DNA of 64,000 nt from a virus (lineage: Duplodnaviria; Caudoviricetes), in the IMG/VR virus record IMGVR_UViG_3300032038_000034, positions 1 through 64,000 of that record; one strand, given 5' to 3'. Shown here one piece after another: positions 25,316 to 60,942 of this stretch; position 1 is the first letter of the stretch, and each line of letters begins with the position of its first letter. The position numbers were made by a program, and so were the translations under genes. The notes below the pieces were generated by a model. That model was not told the DNA's origin. It ran no database searches and worked only from the letters and a program-made list of their open reading frames with translations.

Positions 25316-25389
25316 TGGTCTTCCCGCAACGACTCGAACGCTGACCAAGAGGGTTAGAGCCTCCTGTGCTACCATTACACCACGGGACG
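25316..25389 (-). tRNA. Amber suppressor tRNA (anticodon CUA), tRNA-Gln-like body
   Basis: CGTCCCG TG GTGT AATGGT AGCAC A GGAGG CT-CTA-AC CCTCT TGGT CAGCG TTCGAGT CGTTG CGGGAAG A CCA. Confidence 0.93.
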
Positions 25390-37641: not shown

Positions 37642-37709
37642 CAACAGGTTATTCCAAGTTTCCTTAAAACTGGACCAAACTTTAAGTTTTACAAAAAATC
37701 ATTATCAAA

Positions 37710-38692: not shown

Positions 38693-38847
38693 AAACAATA
38701 TCTATCGTTCAGGCAAAACTGTACGATATAAGGCTGCAGAACTACGTCACAAAGACGCAGTGCCTTACAAACGTGCAACCAAGCACAAAACCTCGTATGA
38801 GGAATATCAATAAAACTTTAAGTTAAACTTTTTAAATCATTATCAAA

Positions 38848-39366
38848 ATGGCAGAAAAGAAAGATGAAAAGAAGGCTCCCGCAACAAAGGAAGCCGAGGA
38901 GACAACAGTTGATGCAATTCGCACCGGTAACCAGATTACAGACGACGCTATTACAGCCGCCCTGTCTGAGATCAACAAAGAAAAGGACGATAACAAGAAG
39001 CGCGAGGCTAAGAAGCAGCTCTGTATCGCTACCTATGTAAACCGTAAGACTGTGCTCCAGCTCCAGCAGCGCCGTCGTGAGGATAAGATCACGAAGGAGA
39101 AGCTCGATGCTTCTAAGTCGCTTCTGGAAAGATTGCTCGGTGTCGAGTGTGAGATCAAGGATGGCGAATGCATCCCGACCAAGAAGAAGATTGACGCAAA
39201 ATTGCGTCTCACACCCGTCCAGCATGAGGCCGAGACCAAAAAGATGGAGGAGGAGTTCTCTAAGAAGGTATCTGAGTCCAACAAAGAGTTCGACACCGCT
39301 ATGCGCGAGTTGCGTAACTCTTACGAGGGTCAGTACCGTCACTATGTAGAGAATTACTGGTATTAA
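38848..39366 (+). CDS. Helical, charged hypothetical protein immediately upstream of the motif-array RNA
   Basis: 172 aa; strongly biased codons; TTATCAAA leader. Confidence 0.85.
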   Translation: MAEKKDEKKAPATKEAEETTVDAIRTGNQITDDAITAALSEINKEKDDNKKREAKKQLCIATYVNRKTVLQLQQRRREDKITKEKLDASKSLLERLLGVECEIKDGECIPTKKKIDAKLRLTPVQHEAETKKMEEEFSKKVSESNKEFDTAMRELRNSYEGQYRHYVENYWY

Positions 39367-39377
39367 TCCATCACCCA

Positions 39378-39714
39378 GGTCTTTAGACGTCGAGAACCTC
39401 CGAGTCAGTGACGTTAAAGTAATCGAAAAAGATGAGAGGCAGCGACCATTGCGTGTCCAGGAGCCTAGAGATCAAGTAGATACTATATATATGTGAATAG
39501 ACACATACGTAGAGAGCCCCCGAGCCATTACGTAAAGACCGCCACCGTCCTCACGGTGTAATAATATGAGGCCATTAGATCAAGTTTGCGATGTGCGAAC
39601 CATGAGTCGGTGCTCCAGTCTGAGATGGTATCAAAAGATTGACACTGCGTTGTATATCAAGAATGCGAACACATTCTATTGAGAACCCGCGAGTCAGTGA
39701 TAGGGCAATGTGTT
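39378..39714 (+). ncRNA. Candidate multi-hairpin RNA displaying repeated GARC-N3/4-GAGYC loops
   Basis: Motif at 39394, 39514, 39597, 39683; three copies have clear closing stems. Confidence 0.65.
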
Positions 39715-39859
39715 ATTATTGAGGCAAAATAAAAAGTCGTTTCTAAGCGTTCGACATGCTTAAGTGGACCAGCTACCCACAAGAGCATAGAAAATGCGTC
39801 AGAATGGCTTAAAATAGCCTTAAATCGAGTGTTTTGACTGATCATCAAGACATTCACAA

Positions 39860-40090
39860 GTAAGAATCTTAGCGTGTGTGAGGTAAACTGTTGTGACACG
39901 GGTTCGACCCCCGTACGCTCCACTAACAATAATAAAATTGGGGCGTAATTGGTATAGAACGCAGTGGAAGTAAACACATTAAGCGCTTTGATATAAAAAT
40001 TAACTGGCAATATTAACATTGCAGACTACACGGGCCTCCAGGAGGCAGCGTGAAGTCGGTGTACAGGCTACCTAAGTGCCTGTGAAACGA
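39860..40090 (+). ncRNA. ssrA: Circularly permuted (two-piece) tmRNA
   Basis: Acceptor piece ends GACACGGGTTCGACCCCCGTACGCTCC-A (39922) BEFORE the 5' piece GGGGCGT (39940); G3:U70 pair; tag ORF 40006-40053 GNINIADYTGLQEAA*. Outer ends approximate. Confidence 0.85.
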
Positions 40091-40148
40091 GAGTGAGTTA
40101 AACTGGGCATCTTCGGATGCGGTGGGTTCGAGTCCCACACTCACTCCA
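40091..40148 (+). ncRNA. tRNA-like element lacking D arm and anticodon
   Basis: GAGTGAGT/ACTCACTC 8-bp stem, GCATC-TTCG-GATGC, T arm GTGGG-TTCGAGT-CCCAC. Confidence 0.65.
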
Positions 40149-40212
40149 AAACGTCGTGAGACGCCGTATCTTTCGAATCTAATTACTTTTGCTCCACAGC
40201 GGTGGAGCATTT

Positions 40213-40286
40213 GGTTCCTTAGCTCAGCTGGATAGAGCAACAGATTTCTAATCTGTGGGTCAAAGGTTCGAATCCTTTAGGAATCA
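40213..40286 (+). tRNA. tRNA-Arg(UCU)
   Basis: GGTTCCT...ACAGA-TT-TCT-AA-TCTGT...AAAGG-TTCGAAT-CCTTT-AGGAATC-A. Confidence 0.93.
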
Positions 40287-40307
40287 CAAATTTAAAACAT
40301 AATCAAT

Positions 40308-40703
40308 ATGAGAACAATATCCTACGATTATTTCTGTAACATCTCAGTAAAATTAGAAAAATTTGTTACAGAGAACCCAAAAGTATTAAGTTCACCAGGC
40401 AAATTGCAAAACAAATTACACCTTGCATCAAATAATTGTAAGGAATTACACAAAATTGCTCAACTTTATTGGAGTGGTTGTGTACCATTGAGAAGATTAG
40501 TATTGTCCATCATTGTTGTAAAATTTTGGAAAGATAGTGTAATATTTGAAAATTGTATGGGAGATTGTGCAGTATACCAATATATGGTAGCTAGATACGA
40601 ACCACATCTGCCATATGCAAGGGCAGATATATACACAAAAGCAAAAAGCTTGGAAAAATTTATGTTTGATACATGGGAAAACAAGGATATCGAGAAATGT
40701 TGA
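40308..40703 (+). CDS. Hypothetical protein
   Basis: 131 aa track ORF. Confidence 0.65.
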   Translation: MRTISYDYFCNISVKLEKFVTENPKVLSSPGKLQNKLHLASNNCKELHKIAQLYWSGCVPLRRLVLSIIVVKFWKDSVIFENCMGDCAVYQYMVARYEPHLPYARADIYTKAKSLEKFMFDTWENKDIEKC

Positions 40704-41624: not shown

Positions 41625-41726
41625 CCCCGACAACCTAACCCGGATTGGTATTCCGGCGGGGCACTAAGCGTTTCGGTTCCGCGTACAGGAGTGACACCTT
41701 AATAAACCGAGTAAATTTGTTTGATT

Positions 41727-42290
41727 ATGAACCCACGTATTACCCCCGAGGAAGTTGGGATGATCAAAAGAGCTCAAGCAGGTGATGAATCTGCATTTAA
41801 TGCGCTTTTCTATAGGTACAAAGGATTTGTGGAGAATCTCCTCTTTCACTATCTTAAAGATATGGATGAGGCCAAAGACGTTGCAAATATCGTCTTTTTG
41901 AAAGTGCATCAAAAACTCTCTAAATTCACAGCATATGACTCCTTTGGAGGATGGCTGAGAATTTTAACTAATCGTACTGCTATTGACTATTTGCGTTCAC
42001 AAGAAAACAAAAGAGTGGCACCTGATGCGAAAGAAGAAAGACTAACTTCAGACGTTCAGGGTTCTACTGAAGATGACCTAGTCAACCATCTGACGTATAA
42101 AGAACTGCTACCTGAGTTCAACAAGTTGCCAGAGATCACTCGTAAGATCTTCACAATGTTCTATGTGAATAATAATACCATAGAAGAGATTAGTAATTCG
42201 TTCAATCCGAAAATCCCAACAGGAACTATTAAGTCAACGTTGTCGAGAACTAGGAAAAAGTTAAAACAACGCTTAAAATTAAAAGTATGA
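41727..42290 (+). CDS. ECF-type sigma-70 family RNA polymerase sigma factor
   Basis: AQAGDESAFNALFYRY, EAKDVANIVFLKV, SFGGWLRILTNRTAIDYLR, IPTGTIKSTLSRTRKKLK. Confidence 0.93.
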   Translation: MNPRITPEEVGMIKRAQAGDESAFNALFYRYKGFVENLLFHYLKDMDEAKDVANIVFLKVHQKLSKFTAYDSFGGWLRILTNRTAIDYLRSQENKRVAPDAKEERLTSDVQGSTEDDLVNHLTYKELLPEFNKLPEITRKIFTMFYVNNNTIEEISNSFNPKIPTGTIKSTLSRTRKKLKQRLKLKV

Positions 42291-42700: not shown

Positions 42701-42784
42701 AAGTATCATCTATCTACGTGGAATTGGTTATAGTTAAGCAGACTAACCACCTGCAAGTAATTAATTTATAAACACATTATCAAA

Positions 42785-44167
42785 ATGGGTAAAAACACTA
42801 AAAGTGCTGCACAAGCTGCAGCAGAACAGGCTGCTCCCGCAACTACCACTCGTCTTGACGGAGGTAAGTTAGAGACTCCTGCAACAAAGGGTCTCTCACA
42901 GGGAGAAAAAGTAAACTACATCGCAGCCATTCAGACTGAGCGCGCATTCATGATGCAGAACGTCGAGAATCCGTCTCAGAGCATGATCGATGGCTTCACG
43001 TTGCTCGCACAGGCAACTATTCTCGATGTAGCAGTTGGCGAAATCGCCACTGGTAGAAGTGTTGTCGGAAACATTATTACCGCAAACGAGAACAATTACA
43101 AGGCGCTTCAGGCAATGGCTTTGGAGCGTGGTATTAAACTTCCTGAGTACAAGGCTCTGCCTGCTCCTACAGAAGAGCAGCTGAAGATTCACGGCCTTCT
43201 CGACATTAAGCCCGCCGACGCTAAGGTTCTTAACGTTGAAGCGAGTAACGTGTCTGACCGCGCAATCGAGCAGAAGAAGAAGGAGATCGCCGCTGTCGCC
43301 AAGGCAGTTGACAATCCTGCAGAGATAAAGACGAAGGAACAGTTGAAGGCCTCTTTGACCGCTATGCTGGTTAAGCCTATCACAGACGGTATCGACCGTC
43401 CTGATGCTCGTGTACAGCGCACTATCAAGTTCTATCGTGGTTATTTGACCATCCAGGCCAATGCCGCAGAGGACAAGAAGACTGCTCTGGAGGAGATGAA
43501 GGCTAAGACTCGCCAGGATATGCTGAACGAGATTGCCGAGATCGTTGGTCCATGTCCGTTCTCTCTTAACGGTACCGCCTACTTTCTTCGCAAGCGTGCC
43601 ATTGAGACCGGTTCTCCTATCTCCGCATTCTGCCTCTATCGTCGTAGTGCCGTTCCTGAAAAGGATAATGCCATTGACGATTCTTACGTGGCTGACATAA
43701 CACGTATTCTCTTGCTCTGGTCTTGCAACAGCCGTATCGCTGAATGCAATTCTATCCTGAAGGAGCAGAAGAAGCACGTTGAGAACGAGACTGGCGCTGC
43801 TAAGGCAGCTACAGAAGCCGCTATTCGTTACAACGAAGCAGCTATCGAAGAGATGAAGCAGGTTATCGAGTGGGTTAACAATCCTACATTCGATATCGTA
43901 GACAGTCTGGTTGAAGACTACAATGCAGAAGACCAGGAGTCTGAGAAGTGCAAACTTGCTCACCGCATCGTCTCTAACATCATGTCCACCTATTATCCTG
44001 AGATCGATATCAAGAAGGCAGACAAGGATAGCATGTTGAAGAATGTTCAGCAGCGTGCTGGTATCATTATCAACATGTTCCGTGGTCCTCTTGCTCAGTC
44101 TATCTCTTACGCAGAGGGTAACCTGACGGATATCATTGTTTCTGAGGAGGAGAATGGAGGCGAATAA
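42785..44167 (+). CDS. Abundant hypothetical protein, 460 aa
   Basis: Strong codon bias; TTATCAAA leader. Confidence 0.85.
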   Translation: MGKNTKSAAQAAAEQAAPATTTRLDGGKLETPATKGLSQGEKVNYIAAIQTERAFMMQNVENPSQSMIDGFTLLAQATILDVAVGEIATGRSVVGNIITANENNYKALQAMALERGIKLPEYKALPAPTEEQLKIHGLLDIKPADAKVLNVEASNVSDRAIEQKKKEIAAVAKAVDNPAEIKTKEQLKASLTAMLVKPITDGIDRPDARVQRTIKFYRGYLTIQANAAEDKKTALEEMKAKTRQDMLNEIAEIVGPCPFSLNGTAYFLRKRAIETGSPISAFCLYRRSAVPEKDNAIDDSYVADITRILLLWSCNSRIAECNSILKEQKKHVENETGAAKAATEAAIRYNEAAIEEMKQVIEWVNNPTFDIVDSLVEDYNAEDQESEKCKLAHRIVSNIMSTYYPEIDIKKADKDSMLKNVQQRAGIIINMFRGPLAQSISYAEGNLTDIIVSEEENGGE

Positions 44168-44196
44168 TATTTGTTCTCTCTAAATCTATCAAAGAC

Positions 44197-44658
44197 ATGA
44201 AATTAATAACAACGTTTCTGTGTGCGCTCGCATTTGCCATCGCAGGCATTTCGCTGGCGGATACAGAAGCAAACAAGACGTTAGCTCTGAAACATCAGAC
44301 GCTAAACGCAGCGACCATTACCGCTCAGCCGGTATTGCCTGCGCTGAATTTCGGGACTCGGGTGAATCCGAGTGTGAAAGACAAAACGGAGAAAGAGTAT
44401 GTCCCATATGAGGTAATCGTAGTTAAGGACACTACTGCAAAAGCTCCGAAAGTAATAACCAAGAAGCTCAAGGGTAAGCGTACACCACCAAGGGCTACTG
44501 TAAAGCGTCAGGGATACAGCATTCCAGCTGCAATTCCTGATTCTGCAGTCCAAAACCAAGTACGTGAGGTTCGTGAGGAGCATACCTCGGACAGTGTTGG
44601 ACCTCCTAAAGGTTCCATTTGCCTTATTGTCGACGATAAGGTAGTCTATAAACGATAA
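44197..44658 (+). CDS. Hypothetical exported protein
   Basis: Signal peptide MKLITTFLCALAFAIAGISLA. Confidence 0.75.
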   Translation: MKLITTFLCALAFAIAGISLADTEANKTLALKHQTLNAATITAQPVLPALNFGTRVNPSVKDKTEKEYVPYEVIVVKDTTAKAPKVITKKLKGKRTPPRATVKRQGYSIPAAIPDSAVQNQVREVREEHTSDSVGPPKGSICLIVDDKVVYKR

Positions 44659-44659
44659 T

Positions 44660-46790
44660 CACTCCGGTGTGGGGGATGCATGAGGATTTGTGTGTCCCCC
44701 GGCCAGATTGGCAACACGTCAGAGCTATGTAAACGGTCTCATTAGCCGGGCTCGAAATAGTACAACTTGATCTGAGAATATGTTAGCCTGCTCAACAGGT
44801 GAGAAATGCAAAAGGTAGGATGAAATGCTGTAAGTTTATGCGTACTACATAACTGAATCGCTTACAGTAAGAGGACAGAGCGTTTGTATCAAGTCCTTTG
44901 GCCCTTGAGAACCGACTGGTGAAGGATAACCATAAAAACGCGTAAGACCCCTAGGGGCAAAATGATGCCGTATTCGACACACTAACTGATGATACATAAG
45001 GTTAGCATAACGATACAGGAGTTGCAACATTAAGTTTGACACCAACCACTTAATGATGTATCAATAAGCTGTAGCTTAGTCCTTCATCCGGGCTCTTCGG
45101 AGGTCCAACCGGATGTGTAAGGGAGTGAAAATTATCTGAGTATATTCGCCTAGCAGAAGGTGTGACTGTCTGCGCCGTACCGTAACTACGGTCCTTGGAG
45201 AAATCCTTGCCGTTCGATTCGTGCACAACTCCGTTGAAGGGGTGCCAGGGATGGGGTACAGAGGAAAATATGATGAAGATGACCGCCAGGCCTTGGTCGT
45301 TCATGCGGTATATAAAAGTAGAATGACTGCCAGTGGATGCAACACTTGAAGTTCTTGTGGTTCTGGAGCCCAAGGATGCGCGACTGAAGCCCGCGAAGAA
45401 AGGCTATTGTAAATGATAACACGCATTGGTAAGCGAATGTGATGTTTGAAATAGGAAATGCAATTAGATGACAACTTGACAGTCAGACGTTTGTTTTGGG
45501 TGGTCGATTCGAAGCCTATACATTCCAGTATAGAGGGAGATCGCTTCCTTCGAAAGTAAGATGATAGTTAGATGACGAACTGTATGCGATATACCGTCAT
45601 ACTTTATCGGGAGAAGATTCTAACGAAGATAATACGTAGTAGAAAACAAAAGAGATATTAACATGTTTAACAAAAATTGATGTTCCCAGCTGGTGGAAGG
45701 AATAAAGACAACTTTGTATGTATGCGCCATCACGCCTGGAGTTCGAGTGCCAACCGTTCCTGAGAAGCAAGTAGCAGAATGAGATACAACGATCGCTATC
45801 TAAGCTTGAGTCGCCAAAAGAGCAATCGAATAGGTAGCCGTGGGTAGCGACTTGAAGTAGGACAGCAAATCCTTTGTAGTCCATAAAGCAATATACATTT
45901 AATCGATGGGCAGCTTATCGTGAAGTTATTAGCCACCTCCCTGTCTCGGAGGGGTAAAGAAAATGAGTAATTAGTCTGTCGAAAGACAGTTCGCTGATGA
46001 AAAGGATTCGGCAAATATGAATCTTTAAGTGGGTGACAAGAAGCGATGTATGAGGTGAAATCCCTCCAGTATTCGTGCACTATAAACAAATGAGGCAAGC
46101 ACTTGCCAAGAGAAGAAAACAAGCCGTAGAGTTATTTGGTTCTGGAGCCTAGACTGTCCGATAACGAAGCACGTCCCGTGCAATGACACACGCACGTCAT
46201 GATGAAAAGGGAAAAGGTAAACAGTAGCGTACGCCTTAAAGTATGCGACATCAGAGAAAATCTGTGGTTAAGTAACAATCACTGTGTAATAACTCGTAGT
46301 AGCTTGGGAAATATACTTACAGAGAAATTACGCAATCTTTTGAGGGGTCCTATGAGCATTAGTTGGCCTAGCCAAAATTTTGCCAACGGACAAAAAGACG
46401 TCGGAACTAGTACGCAAGGAACGTATTCGATGCATGTTTTACGAAAAATAGACATAACTACATATGGTTCTAGTAAACTTAGTGATTGAATTCACATATT
46501 CAGCATTTAAAGCTTTAGCACCTGTTGATGATGATGGGCATGGATGATTCTACCGTTGAATCCCCGTTACACGAGTTGAGCTTCATTTTAAGGAATATAG
46601 AAGTGTAACTAGTCGTCAATAAAAACGTGCTTCCCATTAGCACAGCAACTGAAAACATAATAGGTTGAACAAACCGCATCCAGTAGAACCTCCGAGTCGG
46701 ATGTAAAACTATTTTAGAGGTCACGGACACACCCAGAAGTGTCCATAGTTTTTAATCTTATCGTTGGTGGATCAACCACGATATCAAACA
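44660..46790 (+). ncRNA. 2.1-kb non-coding, hairpin-rich region with internal duplication (large RNA candidate or pair)
   Basis: No credible ORF; repeats GGWGAAATCC..ATTCGTGCAC (45197/46054) and TGGTTCTGGAGCC (45358/46137). Confidence 0.55.
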
Positions 46791-46802
46791 GGATAAGAAA
46801 AA

Positions 46803-47477
46803 ATGAGTAACGAAAAAACAATTGATGTAAACATCAAAACCGTATTGGCCGACAACCGTCAGGCCGCAAGTTTAATTGGCGCGCTGATTGGTAAGGCTTA
46901 CGCCAAAGTAGAAAGCCGCGACTGCTGGCAGGGTGGTAAAGAAGGTTTCGAGAACGATAAAGCCAAGGCAACAGCTCCTGGTGCAGCAGGTCTCATTCTC
47001 AATCGCTCTCCTCGCAAGTTCATGTTGAAGATTCAGGACATCCTCGGCGCCCAGATGTACGTACAGCCTCTGACCAAGCAGGTCGGCGTTGTAGTAAATC
47101 TGGACAGTTCCAATGGTTCCTACGACATGTTCTTCCCGCTGGACGGCTCTAACCCCACTGTCGCTGAGAAGCCTATGGCAGAAGCCATTTCTGATGCTCT
47201 GAAGGGTGAAGGTCAGAACTTCTTCCTGGAGCCCTCTAAGGTTGTCGCTGTTGTCAACGAGGGTAACCGCGCTGAGGTCAAGAACATTGACACTCTGATC
47301 GGTGCTCTGAACAAGATGAAGCAGAACATCATCACGACAATCAACGAGAACGAGAAGAAGGCTATCGAGATCGATAAGGAGTGGGCCACTTCTAAGGTTA
47401 ATGGTGTTGACATCAAGGATGTCGTAGCCAGCGCATCTAGTGCTGTACTCAACGTTCATACTGCTACTGAGGAATAG
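46803..47477 (+). CDS. Abundant hypothetical protein; ends in TAG
   Basis: 224 aa, biased codons; TAG GTA TGA. Confidence 0.85.
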   Translation: MSNEKTIDVNIKTVLADNRQAASLIGALIGKAYAKVESRDCWQGGKEGFENDKAKATAPGAAGLILNRSPRKFMLKIQDILGAQMYVQPLTKQVGVVVNLDSSNGSYDMFFPLDGSNPTVAEKPMAEAISDALKGEGQNFFLEPSKVVAVVNEGNRAEVKNIDTLIGALNKMKQNIITTINENEKKAIEIDKEWATSKVNGVDIKDVVASASSAVLNVHTATEE

Positions 47478-47479
47478 GT

Positions 47480-48070
47480 ATGAACAAAAAGACCCTCACA
47501 AACAGATCTATCCAGCTGATTGGTCTGTTGATGTTAGATGAAACAATTGCAGCCAAAGTTAAGGCTGCGGCTAGCGAGGGCAAATCATTTGAAATATTTG
47601 AAGTTGATGACACTACAGGAGTTATTACCCTGGGTGTCACTCGCTTCAGATGGTGGAATCAACTCATCGGATGTCAGGTAAAACTGCCATTCACGAGTTG
47701 GGCACTTGCCGTATGGGATGCCCTTGTGAGTCTTTCTAAAAATGGCAACGCTGTTGCTATTGAAGAAGGGCTAAGTGTGGAAATCGCTAAGAAAGCACAG
47801 CGCGAAAGTGAGTTTAATTGGGTTGTGGAACGACTCAACGATATCTATGATCATGTAGTTAACAATAAGAACGGTGGAGCGTCTCTCGAGGGAGACCCGG
47901 GGAAGTCAGGCCCAAGCGTAGTCGTTCGCGAACATGATCACGGAGAAACGGTGGTAAACGTACACATAAACAACGAAACTCCTCGCGTGTTCCGCTTTCC
48001 TGACGCAACAGGTAAAGCATTTCTTGACTTAGAAATGGGTATTGTAAACGTAACACGATCGCGGAAATAA
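47480..48070 (+). CDS. Hypothetical protein
   Basis: 196 aa track ORF. Confidence 0.75.
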   Translation: MNKKTLTNRSIQLIGLLMLDETIAAKVKAAASEGKSFEIFEVDDTTGVITLGVTRFRWWNQLIGCQVKLPFTSWALAVWDALVSLSKNGNAVAIEEGLSVEIAKKAQRESEFNWVVERLNDIYDHVVNNKNGGASLEGDPGKSGPSVVVREHDHGETVVNVHINNETPRVFRFPDATGKAFLDLEMGIVNVTRSRK

Positions 48071-48086
48071 CGATCCCGTGGGATCA

Positions 48087-48252
48087 GTTCATATAATATC
48101 GAGGTATAATATGAACACTCTAAGAAACTGTTATACAGCAATACTTGGTTCTTTGCCGAGAAATGTATTAAATAAAAAACAATCTCATCTATAATACTCG
48201 AGGGTATTCGGGGAGTAGGGGATCGAGGTCCCCCTCCCCAGAGATTTGTTTT
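48087..48252 (+). promoter_or_regulatory. Structured leader with three UCGAGG-loop hairpins
   Basis: TCGAGG loops at 48099, 48198, 48223 on three different stems. Confidence 0.6.
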
Positions 48253-48344
48253 GCTTTGTATTAATTTGTTTTGATGCAAGGTACGTGTAGGTAATCTCGA
48301 ATTCAACTAATTAACGGATGTCTAACTAAATCAAATGTTTATAT

Positions 48345-48887
48345 ATGACGAAATCAATTAAGTTGAACGCGAGTAAGATTATTTCTATCCGACAGGATAT
48401 TGATAGCAAGAAGAAGAAGTACTGGAGCTATATTAAAGCCGAGAACCTTATGAGTAAAAAGGACATTAAGAATGGCTACCGTACACACGATCTGAAGAAT
48501 CTTTATAATGAGATTACTCAGATGGCACAGAAGCTTGTATACATCAAGGGTATGTTGTTCTACCTGAATATGGGTATCACAACCTTTGATAAGGAGGCTT
48601 TTAAGAAGACCAACAATTATAGTATTTTCATGGCCTGCGAGATGAAGGAGGCCATCTGTCAGCTCAAGATGATTCCTACCCTGGACCAGAAGACTAAGGC
48701 TCAGAAGGGTCTGAAGAATATTGGTAAGGAGGAGGTATTCACTTCTGCAAAGATTGCTTCTATGATTAAGGAGTTGCAGTTGAAGGCTAACAAGTTCGAT
48801 ACTGACATGGAGAAGTTTAATAGCGATACAACAATCACTATCGACGAGACTATGATTCCTATGGTAGAGACTGACTTGACAGCATAG
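48345..48887 (+). CDS. Helical hypothetical protein; ends in TAG
   Basis: 180 aa, biased codons. Confidence 0.8.
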   Translation: MTKSIKLNASKIISIRQDIDSKKKKYWSYIKAENLMSKKDIKNGYRTHDLKNLYNEITQMAQKLVYIKGMLFYLNMGITTFDKEAFKKTNNYSIFMACEMKEAICQLKMIPTLDQKTKAQKGLKNIGKEEVFTSAKIASMIKELQLKANKFDTDMEKFNSDTTITIDETMIPMVETDLTA

Positions 48888-49004
48888 AAAATAATCCCGA
48901 TCAGAAAGCTGGTGCATGTGTTTATACACATGAGCGGATCGTTCCCGTAACTGATCACAATATTTCCCAATAAATAACATGTTTAACAAATTCATTTATC
49001 AAAG

Positions 49005-49175
49005 ATGAAAACAAGATACAAACAACTTATCGTTTCATTTGCTCTGTCTAACGAAAGATTAGAGCGAGAAACAAAAGATTACGATATCCTTCATGTCGTA
49101 AACACTACCGAAGGTATCGTATACGTAATGAAGAAGAAAAGCTTCATTAAGAGACTTATTAACAAGATTTTTTAA
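49005..49175 (+). CDS. Small hypothetical protein (56 aa)
   Basis: MKTRYKQLIVSFALSNERLE...KRLINKIF; TTATCAAA leader. Confidence 0.55.
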   Translation: MKTRYKQLIVSFALSNERLERETKDYDILHVVNTTEGIVYVMKKKSFIKRLINKIF

Positions 49176-49195
49176 TTTAATTATATTATCAAAAT

Positions 49196-49909
49196 ATGAG
49201 TAAGAATAACACCGTAGACACTGCCCAGAAGGGTCAGACTGCAACTAAGAATAATATCCCCACAGGTAAAGTAAAAACTCTTGCTGACGCTACAGAGCGT
49301 CGTAAGACACGTGAAGAACAGTTCCGTAATTTCCGTATCAACGCCTTGCGTCGTCGTTGTAAACGCATGGGCTTCGATGAGGAGAAGACGGAAGAGCTCG
49401 TAAAGAAGCTCATAGAACAGATGAATGCTCCCAAAGAGTATAACATCGTAGTAATGTTCGATAACTCCGACTATAACATGCTTAAGGAAGCTGTTGAGAA
49501 CGCCAAGATTAAATACAACGTTCTGATAAGCGGAAACACCAAGGCCCGAGTATCACTTGCATACATGTCTCTTGAGGGCGACCAGAATGTTCTGGCCAAG
49601 TTGCGAGAGATTGCACCGCCTAGCGCCAAGATATATCCGTATGCCAAGAAGATGGAATCCGTGCTGCCAAAGGCAGAGCCGAAGAAGAAGAAACCTTCTA
49701 ACAACAGTAAGGAGAAGGCCGCTGCTGTAAAAGCTGCACGCAAGGAGAAGAATATTCACATCCATCGCAGCAAGAAGACCGGAAAGGTCACTAAGAGAGT
49801 AGTGCTAAAAACGCTCTCTGCCGTGAAGAAACGTAAGCCTAGTGTAGTTGTCCACCTGAACCCTAAAAAGGCGTCAGAAGGCTCTAAAACAGCTAAGAAG
49901 GCCGCTTAA
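49196..49909 (+). CDS. Lys-rich hypothetical protein
   Basis: 237 aa; histone-like basic tail. Confidence 0.8.
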   Translation: MSKNNTVDTAQKGQTATKNNIPTGKVKTLADATERRKTREEQFRNFRINALRRRCKRMGFDEEKTEELVKKLIEQMNAPKEYNIVVMFDNSDYNMLKEAVENAKIKYNVLISGNTKARVSLAYMSLEGDQNVLAKLREIAPPSAKIYPYAKKMESVLPKAEPKKKKPSNNSKEKAAAVKAARKEKNIHIHRSKKTGKVTKRVVLKTLSAVKKRKPSVVVHLNPKKASEGSKTAKKAA

Positions 49910-49938
49910 CGTATGTTTAACTTAATCGCAGAAATAAT

Positions 49939-50712
49939 ATGGGAAGTAGCAACGTACGTATTAAGGTTCGTAGAAGAAAAGTAGCGAATCTTGCAGCCTA
50001 TAGCCGTCAGCATACCGTTAACAATATACCAAAGAAGAAACCAACGTTTGAACAGAAGGATCTTCTCAAGGTAGAGTTCAATGATGGTAAGGATGTACAT
50101 TTTGTACAAAAGAGCACCAAATGGGACGAGAAAAAATATCCACAACCTAAGAATCTCCGTAAGAGATGCCACGGCCAAAAGTGGGTAAAATACAAAGACG
50201 GTACCGTAGAACTTAAGAAGTGGGATCATCCGTCAGAGTTCCCTAATCCACGCGACTATCAAAAGAAGTTGTGGAAGAACCTAGGCAAAGCCGCCAAGAT
50301 GAAGGCATATGAGGACGAGAAGATGAAGAAATGGGAGCGTAAGCACCCTAAGCCTTGTCCTACTGACGACCTCTTTAAAGACGAATTTATCCCTATGTGG
50401 GAGAAGGAACGTGAAGAGGCCTTGATACGCATTAGAGACTTCGTCGTCTCGATGTTTGACAAATTACCGCTGACTGGACGCTTTAAGATGAGCGAAAAGA
50501 ATGCGGTCTACCAAGAGAAGAAGATAGCCGACATAAAGGATATCAACGGGGAAGGTCATAAAGTAAACGAACTTGGACCTGAATCCAAACTTCTCAATAA
50601 GGCCCAAAAGATTACTAATAAGACACACGCGAAGAATCCTTCGCTAGTGGCTACTAATCTGAAGGACCACAAGCGCAAGAAAGGTCGTATGATATTGCCA
50701 AAAGCGGCATAA
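49939..50712 (+). CDS. Lys/Arg-rich hypothetical protein
   Basis: 257 aa, very basic. Confidence 0.8.
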   Translation: MGSSNVRIKVRRRKVANLAAYSRQHTVNNIPKKKPTFEQKDLLKVEFNDGKDVHFVQKSTKWDEKKYPQPKNLRKRCHGQKWVKYKDGTVELKKWDHPSEFPNPRDYQKKLWKNLGKAAKMKAYEDEKMKKWERKHPKPCPTDDLFKDEFIPMWEKEREEALIRIRDFVVSMFDKLPLTGRFKMSEKNAVYQEKKIADIKDINGEGHKVNELGPESKLLNKAQKITNKTHAKNPSLVATNLKDHKRKKGRMILPKAA

Positions 50713-50929
50713 ATACGATAGATAAAAGATAGGAATAGGTACACCTCTCAATGATGTGTAAAATACTGATAAATATGCGTATCGGCAGACCTAAGAGTGT
50801 AGGGATCGCTATTTGGTTAATGGTTAATGTCACTCTATTGCCAGGATAAATCCAAGTAAACTCCGATGTCCTATCTTTCTAATATAATGCACAGTAAAGC
50901 CTCTACATAGTACGTAACTGTGTGTAAAA

Positions 50930-51003
50930 GAGTGAGTTAGCTCAGTTGGTAGAGCAGCGAGTTAAGTCGGCTATGTCGCAGGTTCGAGCCCTGCACTCAC
51001 TCC
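50930..51003 (+). ncRNA. tRNA-like RNA with defective anticodon arm
   Basis: GAGTGAGT/ACTCACTC stem; normal D and T arms; anticodon arm AGCGA-GTTAAG-TCGGCT (6-nt loop, bulge). Confidence 0.65.
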
Positions 51004-51030
51004 TAGTATTAACTAAAGAACCTATGAGTC

Positions 51031-52923
51031 ATGTGGATACGAAATCGAATAGTCTACGTATACGACGTAGAGATATTCCCTAATTGTTTCCACTGTTGCT
51101 GTAAAGATACAGAGACCGGTAGACTATACAAATTTGAAATATCAGAAAGAAGGAATCAGCTAGAAGATCTAGTTGATTTCTTTTATTATACACACGAAGA
51201 TTATTTCAAATTGTTTTGTGGTTACAATAATCATCACTATGATGATGTAATCATAAACTATATGATAGACTACAGGAAAAAACTAGCAAGTTTACCTTAC
51301 TGGAAAATTTGTAATTCTTTGTTTAATCTATCTACTACGATAGTGGAAGACGAAGATGGGAGCCGTGAGAAGCTCAAACGATGGAAGTATGCACATTGCT
51401 TCGAATCGATGGACTTGCTCACAATGCAGTTTAGTCAAAAGCTTAGAGTGGGTTTGAAAACCATGCAGGTTACAATGCACTATAAGAATGTCTATGAGTA
51501 CGAAGGAGACTTCGATCAACCTTTGCCTGTAGATAAAATTGACGAAATGATAGCATACAACATAAACGATGTTGAGTCGACTACAGAGTTATTAAACCGC
51601 TTGAAAGAGCAAATCGATTTGAGGTTGTTTATCGAGAAAGAACACGGCATAGATTGTCTTTCTATGGACAGTGTTAAGATGGCAGAGACCTTCCTGTTAG
51701 AAGAATATTCTAAGAAGTCAGGTATTCCTAAAAATGTTATAAAGGAAATGCGTTCTCCTATGGATTATATTCCGTTGAAGGATGTTATTCTGCCATTTAT
51801 AAAATACAAAAATCCAAAGTTACAAGACGTTCTTGAGGATATGAAGAAACAGGTCGTATACTCTAAAGAGCGCAAAGGCTATGAGAAGAAGTTTGTTCTC
51901 TCAAATGTGGTGTATTCAGTAGGTGTAGGTGGAATCCATTCCATCCACACTCCAAAGATATTCCTCCCTAAAGATGACGAGCACATTGGACACGCCGATG
52001 TTACGTCCATGTATCCGTCCTTATTGATTAAATATCAATTTGGCCCTCGTCACTTAGGAAAACTTTTTTGCGATATATTCGAAGGTATTTACTATGAACG
52101 AATAGAAGCAAAACGTACTGGTCAAAAGATTAAGAATCTGTTTCTAAAGATCGTGCTTAATTCTCCTACAGGAAAGATGCAACAGGAGGTAAGTTGGATG
52201 TACGATCCGTTCAATGTTTTTAAGATTAGGATAAACGGTCAACTAATTCTTTTAATGCTCGTAGACAGGCTTTTAGAGCTCGGCTGTGAAATTATACAGG
52301 TGAACACTGACGGCGTTGTCTACAGGGCTAAAAACAGCCTTAAAGATGGAATTGAGAGAGCCATTAAAGAGGTAGAACAGATCACTCAACTTGGTTTTGA
52401 AGTGGATGAGTACGAAGCATTCTATCAATATGCCATCAATGACTACTTTGGGGTCATGAAGGGATATTCAGAGTCGAAAGACCCAGATCTGATAGAGAGA
52501 AAAGGTATGTTTATAACTAAAACAAAGCTTGGGAAGGGATTAGCACCTGTAATCATTCCCAAAGCTGTTATAGAATACTTTGTCAACAAGATACCGGTGA
52601 CAGAAACTATTGAGAAGGATAGAGATATCCGTGATTTCTTAATGTCTCAAGCTGTAGATAAGAAATTTAAAGTTGTACACGGTGAAAAACCTATACAACG
52701 TATCAATAGATTTTATGCAAGCACAGATGGTCCTTATCTCTATAAAGTAGATCCAAATGGAGACAGAGATAAAACCAATATGTTAACTAAATCAGGAGTA
52801 ACAATCCTGAATAAATTTGATGATACCCCGATAGAAGATCGCAAGATTAACTATCGTTACTATATCAGTGAAGCCAAAAAAGTGATAGCAGACTTTACTG
52901 AACAACAGCTATCGTTATTTTAG
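51031..52923 (+). CDS. polB: DNA polymerase, family B
   Basis: ExoI YDVE, ExoII GYNNHHYD, ExoIII YNINDV, motif A DVTSMYPS, motif B KIVLNSPTG, motif C NTDG; C-terminal QQLSLF; ends TAG TAA. Confidence 0.95.
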   Translation: MWIRNRIVYVYDVEIFPNCFHCCCKDTETGRLYKFEISERRNQLEDLVDFFYYTHEDYFKLFCGYNNHHYDDVIINYMIDYRKKLASLPYWKICNSLFNLSTTIVEDEDGSREKLKRWKYAHCFESMDLLTMQFSQKLRVGLKTMQVTMHYKNVYEYEGDFDQPLPVDKIDEMIAYNINDVESTTELLNRLKEQIDLRLFIEKEHGIDCLSMDSVKMAETFLLEEYSKKSGIPKNVIKEMRSPMDYIPLKDVILPFIKYKNPKLQDVLEDMKKQVVYSKERKGYEKKFVLSNVVYSVGVGGIHSIHTPKIFLPKDDEHIGHADVTSMYPSLLIKYQFGPRHLGKLFCDIFEGIYYERIEAKRTGQKIKNLFLKIVLNSPTGKMQQEVSWMYDPFNVFKIRINGQLILLMLVDRLLELGCEIIQVNTDGVVYRAKNSLKDGIERAIKEVEQITQLGFEVDEYEAFYQYAINDYFGVMKGYSESKDPDLIERKGMFITKTKLGKGLAPVIIPKAVIEYFVNKIPVTETIEKDRDIRDFLMSQAVDKKFKVVHGEKPIQRINRFYASTDGPYLYKVDPNGDRDKTNMLTKSGVTILNKFDDTPIEDRKINYRYYISEAKKVIADFTEQQLSLF

Positions 52924-52953
52924 TAACCAACTTAGAGCCCCCGAGTCAATAGT

Positions 52954-53520
52954 ATGATTATTGAAGTAAATACAAGACTTCTGGATGCAAATCCAGAACT
53001 GAATTCAAATCAATTATTGTTCCTAAGTATTGTATTGGATAAGAATCAGCCAAAATATCAAGACGTCCAAAAGGTCATCAACCTTGTCAGTGATGACGAT
53101 ATACAGTACTTAGTCGACCAACATTTGGTCACCTCGATAGAGAGAGGTGATTCAGTTACATATGAGCCAACGGAAGAGTTAAAGCAAAGTATAGCACCTA
53201 AGAAGGACTATTTTGACCTCTTCTACGATATGTATCCCGTGTATGTTGTTCGAGCAGATGGCAGTAAATCTTATTTGCGTGCGAACGTAAACAAGTGTCG
53301 TCATTTCTTTAACCTCAAATGTGGTCGTAGCTCAGCTATGGCAGAACATATCATCAAGTGTCTGGATTATGAAATATCTAAACGGATGCGTGAAGGTAGC
53401 CTTAGTTATATGATGACTATGTGGAATTGGTTAACACGTAGTCAATGGGAGGCCATTGAAGATGAAATGAACGACAAGAAGCAAACACCAGTAAACTCTT
53501 ATGGAACAGAACTTATCTAA
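52954..53520 (+). CDS. Replication-associated protein (putative initiator/helicase loader)
   Basis: Between PolB and DnaB; FDLFYDMYP...WNWLTRSQWE pattern. Confidence 0.6.
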   Translation: MIIEVNTRLLDANPELNSNQLLFLSIVLDKNQPKYQDVQKVINLVSDDDIQYLVDQHLVTSIERGDSVTYEPTEELKQSIAPKKDYFDLFYDMYPVYVVRADGSKSYLRANVNKCRHFFNLKCGRSSAMAEHIIKCLDYEISKRMREGSLSYMMTMWNWLTRSQWEAIEDEMNDKKQTPVNSYGTELI

Positions 53521-54424
53521 CATACGTCCAATGAGCGTTGTTGCTCAAGAAGCAATCAACTATATCAAAGGACGAAGAGAGCATAACATTGTTTCTCTTA
53601 AAACTAGATGGGAAAAGTTTAATAAGCAGTGTATGGGAGGTATAGAACCAAATACCGTTTACACCATAGCTGGTATATCTGGAACTGGTAAGTCGAGCTG
53701 GGTTAATAGTTTGACAACCGATATAATTGATTTGAATCCAACTGAAGACATAGTCATTCTAAACTTCTCGTTAGAGATGGTTGGATTTAGGCAAGTAGGA
53801 AGGACGCTTTCGAGTAAACTTCGTAAAACGACTTCTGACTTGTATAGTTCTGAAAAGGACCTGGATGACGAAACGTTTAAACGTGTTATTGCAGTATCTA
53901 ATCAGCTGAAGGAATATCCTATATATTTTGTGGATAACCCAAGCACTCCTTCAGAGGTAGAAAAAACTATAAAGAATTTCTATGAAACGTATGTAAAGGG
54001 TTCTAAGAAACACTTTATTATCGTATACGATCACACGTTGCTGACTAAACAAGTAGGTTCTGTAATAGAGACTACTTCGGAACTTGAGCGAGTATTTATA
54101 CAAGCTAAAAAGTATCCGATGACATCAGTGATTCAGATTGCACAAATGAATAGAAATATCGAGTCTTCAGAAAGGATAAATAACCCATCGAGTCATTACC
54201 CGATGCGAAGTGATTTATCGTCATCTGATGCGATGTTTCAGGCAAGTGATTACGTGCTTGTCATGCATAGACCAGAGATATTGAACATTCAAGAGTACGG
54301 ACCAAACCGTTTACCTACACAAAATAAGGTTTACATGCATATGTTGAAAAACAGAGACGCAGGCAAACCTTGTATTCTTGAATTCGAGAACGATTTGATG
54401 TACAATAACCTGATCGAACGTTAA
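53501..54424 (+). CDS. dnaB: DnaB-family replicative helicase
   Basis: AGISGTGKS, FSLEM, IVYDH, IAQMNR, SDLSSSDAMFQASD, KNRDA. Confidence 0.92.
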   Translation: MEQNLSNIRPMSVVAQEAINYIKGRREHNIVSLKTRWEKFNKQCMGGIEPNTVYTIAGISGTGKSSWVNSLTTDIIDLNPTEDIVILNFSLEMVGFRQVGRTLSSKLRKTTSDLYSSEKDLDDETFKRVIAVSNQLKEYPIYFVDNPSTPSEVEKTIKNFYETYVKGSKKHFIIVYDHTLLTKQVGSVIETTSELERVFIQAKKYPMTSVIQIAQMNRNIESSERINNPSSHYPMRSDLSSSDAMFQASDYVLVMHRPEILNIQEYGPNRLPTQNKVYMHMLKNRDAGKPCILEFENDLMYNNLIER

Positions 54425-54465
54425 TGCTCAGATGACAAGTATTAACAATTAAAATAGGCTGATTT

Positions 54466-54933
54466 ATGATTACGACATATACTTTTGGTAAGAAGAATAA
54501 TAATAGTTACAATCCCTTTCACACTAGTAGCAAACCCAACTATTCTAAGATTCTTGATGATATCATTATTGCTGATGTAATTAAGAAGAATAGTTATCTG
54601 TTCAATAAGACGGACAATACGGCAGCTATCGACACCACTCTCCTGGGTGCATCGTACGATTCTGATTTCGATAAGGCTGTTAAGTTCCTTGCCAATTACA
54701 AGAAGCCGAAGAAGAATTATATTCTCCCCTTCGCGCTGAATAAAATGTATACTCTTTCTGACGGTACTCCCATTATCTTCTACGATGATGAGATTCAGAT
54801 TGGTTTTGATACGTATAGCTACGCTGATTTCAGCGACATTTCGTTCATTAACGCTCTGACACCTAAGAAAAAGAAGATTATTATTGATATCTATACGTTT
54901 GGCAACGCTAATATCAATATTAATATTCTTTAA
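54466..54933 (+). CDS. Hypothetical protein
   Basis: 155 aa track ORF. Confidence 0.75.
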   Translation: MITTYTFGKKNNNSYNPFHTSSKPNYSKILDDIIIADVIKKNSYLFNKTDNTAAIDTTLLGASYDSDFDKAVKFLANYKKPKKNYILPFALNKMYTLSDGTPIIFYDDEIQIGFDTYSYADFSDISFINALTPKKKKIIIDIYTFGNANININIL

Positions 54934-54954
54934 TCATTAGAACTATAAGTCAAT

Positions 54955-55701
54955 ATGATAACATTACCTACTCAAAAAGTTCCTGCAACTTCAACTAATC
55001 CGCAGTATTTAATCTTATACGGTCTTCCTAAGAGCGGTAAGACGAGTGCTGTAGCTCAGTTGGAGAATAATCTCATCATAGACCTTGAAGGCGGATCTAA
55101 GTTTATTGATGCGCTAGCTGTTCAGGCACGTACCATCAATGATCTTGGAGAGATTGCACAAGCCATTCGAGCTAAGAACGATGAGGTAGGACATAATTTT
55201 TATAGACACATTACTATCGACAATGCTACACGTCTCGAAGATATTTGTATGAGCTACGCGTGCACACTTTACAGACAGACCGAATTAGGAAAGAACTGGA
55301 AAGGAAACGATGTTACAACACTTGCACGAGGAGCAGGTTATAAGTATTTAAGAGATGCAGTAAAGAAGGTAATTGATATGTTCAAGGACCTTTGTGACGA
55401 ATTTATTCTGATAGGACACGTTAAAGATTCTATTACTGATAAGGATGGACAAGAAGTCAATGCTAGAGAAATCGACCTTGTTGGAAAACTCGGACGAATT
55501 GTATGCGGACTCGCAGATGCGGTCGGCTACGTTTATCGAAAAGAAAATGAGACTCATGTCTCGTTTAAAGGCGGCGATGGAGACTCCGTCCTCGAAGCAA
55601 GAGCGAAACATCTTGCGGGAAAAGATATCATCATTTCTACAGGAAATGAAGACGGATCAATAACAACCTATTGGGATCGTGTTTACAAACCAGAAGTATA
55701 A
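54955..55701 (+). CDS. AAA_24/Sak4-like ATPase
   Basis: LILYGLPKSGKT, IIDLEGG, ITID, ILIGH, ADAVGYVYR. Confidence 0.85.
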   Translation: MITLPTQKVPATSTNPQYLILYGLPKSGKTSAVAQLENNLIIDLEGGSKFIDALAVQARTINDLGEIAQAIRAKNDEVGHNFYRHITIDNATRLEDICMSYACTLYRQTELGKNWKGNDVTTLARGAGYKYLRDAVKKVIDMFKDLCDEFILIGHVKDSITDKDGQEVNAREIDLVGKLGRIVCGLADAVGYVYRKENETHVSFKGGDGDSVLEARAKHLAGKDIIISTGNEDGSITTYWDRVYKPEV

Positions 55702-55718
55702 CTCAGAGTTTAAGAATT

Positions 55719-56327
55719 ATGTATAGTACAAAAACAGCAACAACAAATAACCAGGAGTTTAATAGCTCCTATATGCCTGTAGGCATCAACGAGAATGTAA
55801 CCTTGAAAGAGGTTAATGTAAACAAAACACCTAATGGTCGTGACTTCTTGGAGATAATCTTTGAGAATGAGAACGGTCAGACAGCAACTATGACAGAGTG
55901 GAAGAACGAAAAGAATCAGTGGATTGCTACCGACGAAGATTTGCAGCGTCGTGACGATGCACAGTTTGGTCGTATTCTGCAGGTTATAGATGCAGCAAAC
56001 GGTAACCATACCGACTTCGAAGGAAGTTCGTTTGTGGAGATGATTAACTGGGTAAAAGCTCAGCTTGAACCAGCTACAAATCCTGCAAACATGCGTCAAG
56101 GTATGCGTTTGAAGGTTGTTTACGACAAGAAGGGTTATACGAAAGTTAGCTCTCTTGGTACTTTTGTTGAACCTATGAGTGTAGAAGAGTCTCAGATTAA
56201 GCTTTGGAAGAATGATCTTCTTGAGCGTCCTGTTGTAGCAGATGTTGAACCTGCTGCAGATCCGCTCGGTGTAACTACCGCTCCGGTGACTGAGACTTCA
56301 ACAGGTGCTGACGACCTGCCTTTTTGA
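55719..56327 (+). CDS. Single-stranded DNA-binding protein (putative)
   Basis: Follows the Sak4-like gene; ends GADDLPF; true ATG at 55719. Confidence 0.75.
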   Translation: MYSTKTATTNNQEFNSSYMPVGINENVTLKEVNVNKTPNGRDFLEIIFENENGQTATMTEWKNEKNQWIATDEDLQRRDDAQFGRILQVIDAANGNHTDFEGSSFVEMINWVKAQLEPATNPANMRQGMRLKVVYDKKGYTKVSSLGTFVEPMSVEESQIKLWKNDLLERPVVADVEPAADPLGVTTAPVTETSTGADDLPF

Positions 56328-56424
56328 TTCGTGGTATTATAAACCACGAAAAATGTATATCGGAAACGGTTTACTAGAGCAAATGGTCAGTGGTGGAGGT
56401 TGACTTCTGGTCAACCCTTGGTTA

Positions 56425-56522
56425 AGTATAGATGCTAAAGCGGCCGAGTACCCTAGAGGGAAAGCATTTGACGTCTAAGGCGTGCGGTGCACACAGAGGT
56501 TCGAGTCCTCTCTATACTACAA
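56425..56522 (+). ncRNA. tRNA-like RNA (acceptor + T arm, non-canonical interior)
   Basis: AGTATAG/CTATACT-A-CAA; AGAGG-TTCGAGT-CCTCT. Confidence 0.55.
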
Positions 56523-56540
56523 TAATTTAAATTAAGTACT

Positions 56541-56819
56541 ATGATATCAGAAAAGTTAAGAAGATGTTCTAATTGTGGAAGGTTCATGAATGAAGGTTAT
56601 CTTCTTGGGGTTTATTACGCCTGTAGTGATAAGTGTAGAAATAAAATTTACAGAAAACATAATGGCGTAAAAACAGACGAAGAGGCTAAAATAATGTACC
56701 TGAAAGACTGTTATATGCTTGAAGATAAGGACATCGAAGGACTTACTTCTGAGCAAATATCAGAGAAATACAAAGATTGTGAAATATCAGATGATGTATT
56801 TTGGACACAGTGGTGGTAA
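56541..56819 (+). CDS. Small Zn-finger-like protein
   Basis: CSNC...CSDKC. Confidence 0.7.
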   Translation: MISEKLRRCSNCGRFMNEGYLLGVYYACSDKCRNKIYRKHNGVKTDEEAKIMYLKDCYMLEDKDIEGLTSEQISEKYKDCEISDDVFWTQWW

Positions 56820-56948
56820 ATAATTATGAAGAAAAAAGATTATCACAAACCAGGATATTGGAAAGACTGGTATTGGAACAAAGGCGGACGAGAAAAAGTC
56901 CAAGCAACACGTTATATTGCAGAATATGAACGTGAAAAAAGGAAAAAT

Positions 56949-57020
56949 GGTTGTGAGGCTTAAAAGTAGGAATAAAGCTAGTGCGCGCGCTAAGTGGTTC
57001 GAATCCACCCACAACTTCAA
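56949..57020 (+). ncRNA. tRNA-like RNA with a 4-nt loop in place of the anticodon
   Basis: GGTTGTG/CACAACT, GCTT/AAGC, TAGTG-CGCG-CGCTA, GTGG-TTCGAAT-CCAC. Confidence 0.6.
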
Positions 57021-57040
57021 TACAAAAGAGCTTATAAGCC

Positions 57041-58015: not shown

Positions 58016-58266
58016 TAGAGACATTGATCCTCGGCATAGTGATTGGTATCGTAGGTACTATTGCTGGAGCCGCATATGCAGCATATAAGTGGAGTAAAAA
58101 CCCATATGTGCTGAAAAAGTTTAATAGTGGTTATAGTGTACTTGCTTGCGATATTGGTTTCGAAGGAGATCCGAATGGCTACATTGGATTGAGAAAGAAC
58201 AATAAAATAATCGCAGGCATTAAATACAACGATAACGGAGTTACAGATATCGTATATGATATCTAA
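58012..58266 (+). CDS. Small membrane protein
   Basis: N-terminal TM helix. Confidence 0.65.
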   Translation: MIETLILGIVIGIVGTIAGAAYAAYKWSKNPYVLKKFNSGYSVLACDIGFEGDPNGYIGLRKNNKIIAGIKYNDNGVTDIVYDI

Positions 58267-60894: not shown

Positions 60895-60917
60895 AAAGAG
60901 TCCCGCCTTTTATTTTT
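60872..60917. terminator. Bidirectional terminator between the convergent blocks
   Basis: AAATAAAGGCG-AGGCTCT-GTAAAA-AGAGTCC-CGCCTTTTATTTTT. Confidence 0.85.
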
Positions 60918-60942
60918 CCATTAGAGTTTATTTTTACGCTCG

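Follow-up and report, generated by a model that had tools for sequence, protein, structure and literature searches.

In the CsrB/RsmZ-CsrA/RsmA systems, a short motif is repeated in the hairpin loops of a non-coding RNA and is also present over the initiation regions of the target mRNAs. The coat proteins of the phages MS2 and PP7 act on a hairpin at the start of the replicase gene, which in MS2 contains a bulged A, and the T4 RegA and gp43 (DNA polymerase) operators place several replisome genes under translational control. We know of no multi-copy decoy RNA in any of these phage systems. Long intergenic regions of the crAss-like phage phi14:2 are highly transcribed, and their role is unknown (bioRxiv 10.1101/2020.03.07.982082).

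The locus described here belongs to a crAss-like phage of the rumen with a genome of 102,772 bp (102.8 kb), and the window, i.e. the whole stretch of DNA under study, comprises its first 64,000 nt (IMG/VR record IMGVR_UViG_3300032038_000034). A sequence-only reading had proposed that positions 39378-39714 encode a Csr/Rsm-like sponge RNA. The likeness to CsrB/RsmZ holds insofar as a motif that acts at the RNA level is located on start codons and is repeated four times in a non-coding RNA. In contrast to CsrB/RsmZ, the motif is a bulged 3-bp stem-loop (GARYC-N2-3-GARYC) and not (A)GGA, the phage genome lacks CsrA, and the array has no Rfam match to CsrB or RsmX/Y/Z. The picture of a CsrB-like string of hairpins had to be given up, because the RNA has a pseudoknot, long-range helices, invariant linkers and a junction to the adjoining tmRNA. 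It also has only four sites. With the operators of MS2/PP7 and T4 the locus shares a small RNA element on the start codons of replication genes, but the sequence is unrelated, the phage has no RegA homologue, and binding at this locus is putative. A permuted tmRNA (RF04321) lies directly downstream on the same strand and is structurally continuous with the array, but the Rfam model covers only 39874-40053, and the phage cr114_1 has a tmRNA without an array. The transcripts of phi14:2 also come from a crAss-like phage and are abundant non-coding RNAs, but they are from another family and another genome location, and no structure, motif or link to gene starts was described for them (bioRxiv 10.1101/2020.03.07.982082).

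The nearest named relatives are cr273_1, cr272_1, cr131_1, cr7_1, cr124_1 and a Bohxovirus, all of them Crassvirales of the family Suoliviridae, subfamily Oafivirinae. The public runs that contain the stretch are from bovine and sheep gut samples. The stretch is situated in a block of + strand genes with the order 172-aa ORF, array, permuted tmRNA and tRNA-Arg. No ORF covers 39367-39832, also when TAG is decoded as Gln, so that the absence of ORFs reported by the sequence-only reading was confirmed and a coding role of 39378-39714 was rejected. Elsewhere in the genome, a suppressor tRNA with the anticodon CUA is encoded at 25316-25389 (-), and a late-arm ORF at about 81.6 kb contains TAG codons in frame; TAG is probably recoded in the late genes of this phage. 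A gene for an ECF-type sigma factor (Sigma70_r2/r4) is found at 41721-42290, and in all relatives it lies 1.5-2 kb downstream of the tmRNA.

In the whole 102.8-kb genome, the pattern GARCC-N2-3-GAGYC occurs seven times on the + strand and not at all on the - strand, and four of the seven instances lie within 39378-39714. For comparison, the looser pattern of the sequence-only reading is expected about once per strand in Markov shuffles, so the motif is more frequent than in shuffled sequence. For 20 related full-length records, GARYC-N2-3-GARYC was counted 150 times on the gene strand versus 16 times on the other strand, and a reversed-pattern control gave about one instance per strand per genome. 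Every motif-bearing relative among these 20 has a cluster of three to four copies at the equivalent position upstream of the tmRNA, spaced by 85-160 nt, and the dispersed copies are situated downstream of the cluster.

The middle dinucleotides of the two halves occur in the combinations AC/GU, GU/AC, GC/GC, AU/AU and GC/GU, while AC/AC and GU/GU are essentially missing among bona fide sites. These combinations indicate two Watson-Crick pairs, of position 3 with 4′ and of position 4 with 3′. For motif copy 3 (alignment A6), pairing of the mini-helix reaches 98%, and GC/AU and CG/UA occur as alternatives. The outer pair covaries as well: gene-start variants such as UAACC..GAGUA and AAACC..GAGUU replace G1-C5′ by U-A or A-U. 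Comparative analysis thus describes the motif as a 3-bp stem (G1-C5′, R3-Y4′, Y4-R3′) with base 2 bulged and a loop of 6-7 nt (C-NNN-GA). Variants such as GAACU-AU-AAGUC gain an additional U5-A2′ pair. The alternative register (1-5′, 2-4′, 3-3′) was rejected, because its middle pairs never fit, whereas the register with a bulged base 2 accounts for every combination; it also explains why the two halves may swap their order. The bulged register implies that the element works as RNA, and action at the RNA level is supported by its strand specificity and by the covariation of both the surrounding stems and the motif's own pairs.

Two covariance models were built and all loci were re-aligned to them. 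By the strong covariation across about 30 distinct relatives (Oafivirinae), the stretch makes up most of a conserved, structured RNA, about 450-500 nt in length, which fills the region between the 172-aa ORF and the permuted tmRNA. The features of the region, as predicted from these comparisons, are as follows.

38848-39366 (+): 172-aa ORF, which adjoins the array in all relatives
39378-39540 (+): P1 domain, a closing helix (39378-85/39533-40) around hairpin 1, a variable part, hairpin Ha and hairpin 2
39394-39406 (+): motif copy 1, GAACCUCCGAGUC, with the stem GACGUC/GACGU
39491-39506 (+): hairpin Ha, with a conserved loop of the GAAUUAAC type
39514-39526 (+): motif copy 2, GAGCCCCCGAGCC, with the stem UACGUA/UACGUA
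39543-39571 (+): H-type pseudoknot, with the stem 39543-47/39554-58 and pairing of the loop 39549-53 with 39567-71
39578-39582 (+): GAUCA linker, invariant in alignment A1
39588-39653 (+): P3 domain, a long-range helix (39588-93/39648-53) around motif copy 3 and a branch hairpin (39609-39646)
39597-39608 (+): motif copy 3, inside the P3 domain
39654-39666 (+): nearly invariant single-stranded linker AUAUCAAGAAUGC
39668-39714 (+): hairpin 4, with the stems 39668-80 and 39699-39714 and motif copy 4 (39683-39695)
39737-39807 and about 39827-39856 (+): two conserved, covarying hairpins that link the array to the tmRNA, the latter with a GAUCA loop
39874-40053 (+): permuted (two-piece) tmRNA (Rfam RF04321, 53.7 bits; ARAGORN 39833-40144, tag GNINIADYTGLQEAA)
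46676-46704 (+): fifth motif hairpin (motif at 46686), with a CAUCC/GGAUG stem, about 105 nt before a 224-aa gene

All four copies are located where the sequence-only reading had placed them (39394, 39514, 39597 and 39683), and so is the fifth hairpin, which is kept in relatives with covarying stems. The closing stems that it had named exist, and its larger closing helix (GGUCUUUA/UAAAGACC) covaries: cognate duplexes have a mean of -11.2 kcal/mol versus -7.2 kcal/mol for non-cognate ones. Hairpin Ha is 97% paired, with compensatory changes at four of its five pairs. In the pseudoknot, the stem is 95% paired and the pseudoknot helix 90%, the latter again with compensatory changes at four of five pairs. 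The P3 domain has compensatory changes at every pair, and for the two linking hairpins this applies to 24 of the 36 predicted pairs.

For domain A (Ha, hairpin 2 and the pseudoknot; 36 matches, 26 distinct), 86% of the cells are paired versus 63% in shuffles, and the covariation score is 0.579, compared to 0.177 for shuffles and 0.05-0.12 for slid partners. Domain B (the long-range helix around motif copy 3, the branch hairpin and hairpin 4; 40 matches, 31 distinct) shows compensatory changes at 33 of 33 pairs, 79% paired cells versus 60% in shuffles, and a score of 0.509 versus 0.216. The stem covariation in homologues is thus well above the shuffled controls in both domains.

Two “degenerate copies ending AGATCAAGT” that had been reported to alternate with the hairpins are not instances of the motif: the one at 39577 is the invariant GAUCA linker, and the one at 39469 is in the variable, non-conserved part. 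Words of the type (G)AUCAAG are found at 39469-39477, 39577-39585, 39655-39662 and 39840-39850, in single-stranded linkers and one hairpin loop. Two of them are invariant across relatives, and they may represent a second recognition element.

Known RNA families gave no assignment. In 39370-39725, no Rfam family matched at E ≤ 10 except for two chance matches. RAGATH-20/RAGATH-22 (RF03048, RF03098) had no match at E ≤ 10 in 39200-40400, 39370-39725 or 44000-61000, and the Rfam models of GOLLD and ROOL, large ornate phage-associated RNAs, did not match at the array locus.

The stretch ends at 39714, outside of the RF04321 match, and conserved covarying structure continues unbroken from 39378 up to the tmRNA. 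The + strand of the locus has a single terminator-like site, which lies at 40190-40209. A second tRNA-like end (GGTGGGTTCGAGTCCCAC ACTCACTCCA) was observed at 40085-40150, downstream of the tag frame of the tmRNA. Rumen metatranscriptome contigs from three studies cover the stretch, and two runs of one study each have a single contig that extends over 38849-40013, at a depth 6-7 times that of the contig just upstream. This is a weak hint that the 172-aa ORF, the array and the tmRNA share one transcript, as contigs cannot prove transcription, strand or RNA ends.

A different leader class precedes other + strand genes, including the 172-aa ORF. It consists of AACTTTAAGTT, about 15 nt, and then ATCATTATCAAA directly before the ATG, and it was found at 37670-37709, 38808-38847, 42745-42784, 49156-49195 and 40268-40307. 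RNA-library contigs start at about 38849 in two runs, near the leader of this class at the 172-aa ORF. The class may represent a promoter with a very short leader.

The sequence-only reading had also claimed that the motif recurs at the starts of six replication genes. Six copies were indeed found, and they are conserved across relatives.

51018-51030 (+): copy abutting the polB ATG (51031), ending at -1
52935-52947 (+): copy 6 nt before the ATG (52954) of a 188-aa ScpB-like gene
54940-54951 (+): variant copy GAACTATAAGTC (GAACUAUAAGUC), 3 nt before the ATG of a RecA-like gene
55706-55718 (+): degenerate copy GAGTTTAAGAATT (GAGUUUAAGAAUU), abutting the ATG of an SSB-like gene
57028-57040 (+): variant copy GAGCTTATAAGCC (GAGCUUAUAAGCC), abutting the primase ATG
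60386-60398 (+): copy with swapped halves, GAGTCATTGAACC (GAGUCAUUGAACC), 1 nt before the ATG of a 164-aa gene

The gene-start copies are without the supporting stems of the array copies. At polB and at least five further replication genes, they abut or overlap the AUG or end 0-8 nt before it, at syntenic places across genera. Among the polB leaders of 80 IMG/VR loci, a copy precedes polB in 44, and in 39 of these 44 it ends exactly at -1 of the ATG (gap 0). Other clades have GUAUC-UUA-GUAUC, GAAUC-AUA-GAAUC or the swapped form GAGUC-UUU-GAACC at the same position. For the 188-aa ScpB-like gene, the motif was present in 38 loci with a gap of 2-8 nt, and in one clade the AUG of the RecA-like gene lies within the loop of the motif. 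Conserved copies also precede the SSB-like, primase and 164-aa genes. A relaxed form of the motif was detected in 48/58, 42/60, 41/54, 38/45, 25/34 and 13/17 distinct leaders of the six genes, versus only 10/63 helicase leaders and 6/38 leaders of a 155-aa gene, which served as control genes of the same block.

Further sequences were observed near these starts. AGTATTAAC is present at 51005-51013 and 54438-54446, some 20-30 nt ahead of the ATG codons of polB and the 155-aa gene, respectively, and is conserved at both places in relatives. T-arm-like sequences (GAGGTTCGAGTCCTCTC and GTGGTTCGAATCCAC) with acceptor-like flanks lie at 56430-56520 and 56975-57012, upstream of a 92-aa gene and of the primase gene; ARAGORN calls no tRNA for either of them. 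A tRNA-Leu is located 27 nt upstream of polB. Together, this suggests tRNA-punctuated mRNA processing at polB, the 92-aa gene and the primase gene.

The array and the dispersed copies change together in individual lineages. In G012 and G019, all four array copies read GAGCC-UAUUA-GAGCC, and the 4-5-nt spacer recurs in the fifth hairpin and in the gene-start copies, whereas every other lineage has spacers of 2-3 nt. In G001, base 2 is U in the array (GUGCC, GUACU) as well as at polB and at the 188-aa gene (GUAUC, UUAUC). In G002, the order of the halves is swapped in array copies 1 and 4 as well as in the polB copy. Such concerted changes make one trans-acting reader, common to all copies, likely. 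The clade G015-G018 retains a three-copy array and has almost no gene-start copies, which argues that the RNA has a role independent of the gene-start operators. In the Uncouvirinae phage cr114_1, a tmRNA is present and is immediately preceded by a CDS; model R2 had no match anywhere in its genome, and no motif was found at polB or the next gene. The joint absence of the array and of the gene-start copies in this single outgroup lends weak support to a linkage of the two.

We searched for proteins that might read the motif. Candidate binders named by the sequence-only reading were the 172-aa protein and the proteins encoded at 49196 and 49939, and a recognizable RNA-binding family or fold was found for none of them. 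None of the 144 homologues of the 172-aa protein has a Pfam family, and the protein has no PHROG family. Its AF2 model (pLDDT 76) comprises a helical hairpin and a beta-hairpin, and the best Foldseek match in the PDB, with an E value of 0.9, is not significant. The predicted structure thus contains no recognizable RNA-binding fold, a result that speaks neither for nor against binding. For the proteins at 49196 and 49939, neither a family nor a look-alike in the Atlas was found. CsrA/RsmA (PF02599) was searched for in all six frames of the complete phage genome and gave nothing at E ≤ 0.1, with the controls being detected, and no RRM was present in the genome. The sole match to RegA (PF01818), with 12.9 bits at a cut-off of 25, is in a giant late ORF at 81.6 kb and was taken as chance. 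The surrounding ORFs have no RNA-binding or nuclease family, the only informative family being the ECF sigma factor. A presence/absence comparison with cr114_1 did not narrow the list of binders, as most early ORFs have no homologue in that phage. The pseudoknot 17-mer had 36 matches in GTDB genomes; model R2 confirmed none of the 11 that were checked, among them all five Bacteroidales/Prevotella contigs, so that no clue to the host was obtained.

A bulged hairpin of only 3 bp would not stop a ribosome by itself. The exact placement of the motif on start codons, its conservation and its concerted evolution point to a trans-acting reader. Beyond the observed motif, fold, conservation, synteny and concerted evolution, we infer a protein reader, repression and a decoy role of the array. 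A single reader would bind every copy of the motif; it would probably be an RNA-binding protein, encoded by the phage or the host and possibly a dimer. By occupying the initiation region of a gene, the bound reader would repress translation in the manner of the MS2 coat protein, T4 RegA and T4 gp43. Competition by the four-site RNA for this reader would set the timing of replisome synthesis. By analogy with these systems and, for the multi-site competitor, with CsrA and CsrB/RsmZ, we regard it as quite possible, falling just short of probable, that a shared RNA-binding factor represses initiation and that the four-site RNA competes for it. The sponge reading is plausible. It is weakened by the searches for a binder, which named no protein. 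Against a decoy, the pseudoknot, the long-range helices and the invariant linkers exceed the needs of a plain decoy, the RNA is contiguous with the tmRNA, and the G015-G018 clade has an array with almost no gene-start copies.

The latter observations fit the main competing explanation, in which the array serves as a functional domain within the phage tmRNA or some other RNP, its mini stem-loop docks onto the ribosome or a translation factor, and the gene-start copies promote initiation. The array could then extend the acceptor piece far in the 5′ direction, in the position that permutation would give to the pseudoknot ring of a one-piece tmRNA. The covarying structure that reaches from 39378 to the tmRNA without a break, the lack of a terminator-like site ahead of 40190, the pseudoknot and invariant linkers, the array of G015-G018, and the little use of Shine-Dalgarno pairing by the presumed Bacteroidota hosts (general knowledge) are all in its favor. 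We nevertheless consider it rather unlikely, since the Rfam model of the permuted tmRNA begins only at 39874, cr114_1 has a tmRNA without such an upstream domain, and the lineage differences in spacer length and base 2 fit a fast-evolving phage partner better than the conserved ribosome.

Cleavage offers another explanation, in which the mini stem-loop is the site of an endoribonuclease that cuts the polycistronic replication mRNA by the start codons and processes the array/tmRNA precursor. In its favor, the copies occupy short gaps between genes, with 0-8 nt between copy and AUG, and a tRNA or tRNA-like T-arm ahead of polB and the primase gene suggests punctuated processing. However, in the clade with the RecA-like AUG inside the motif loop, cleavage on the 3′ side of the motif would eliminate the start codon. 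In addition, the neighboring genes include no nuclease family, and the array hairpins within long-range helices suggest one intact folded RNA, so that this explanation appears improbable. Highly improbable is an element at the DNA level, i.e. origin iterons or a promoter/operator recognized by a DNA-binding protein, for example the phage ECF sigma factor, although direct repeats are clustered in an ORF-free region near replication genes, the sigma factor gene is 2 kb downstream, and GAAC-like words resemble ECF -35 boxes. The orientation is nearly always that of the transcript (150 versus 16), three internal pairs of the motif covary around a bulge, and the covariation of the pseudoknot and the long-range helices can only be that of RNA; a double-stranded DNA site working in either orientation is thus not borne out. 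The halves are 2-5 nt apart versus 16-17 nt for a promoter, and the turning points of the GC skew are at about 27 kb and 61 kb rather than at 39.4 kb. A promoter or origin is largely excluded by the strand bias, the GC skew and covariation of a kind that only RNA can show.

The reading that we prefer, a repressing reader and a competitor RNA, amounts to a translational operator together with its competitor. By analogy, both would be of known kinds in a new form, and their function is proposed. Full-text literature searches found no account of the array RNA or of a translational repressor in crAss-like phages. If the decoy model is true, this would be, to our knowledge, the first described phage-encoded sponge RNA for a translational regulator. 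For the Oafivirinae, we tentatively suggest, as a possible though not a probable circuit, that a factor recognizes the mini stem-loop at the start codons of replisome genes, and that the four-site RNA, co-transcribed with the tmRNA, competes for it and times replication.

crAss-like phages are among the most abundant viruses of the gut and the rumen, and the control of their gene expression is very little understood. Their hosts largely lack Shine-Dalgarno-based initiation, which raises the question of how phage mRNAs are chosen for translation. One conserved RNA module, present on the start codons of the replisome genes and in a structured RNA beside the tmRNA, offers a concrete and testable entry point. 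If true, the circuit would tie the control of replication to the translation-rescue and recoding machinery of the phage.
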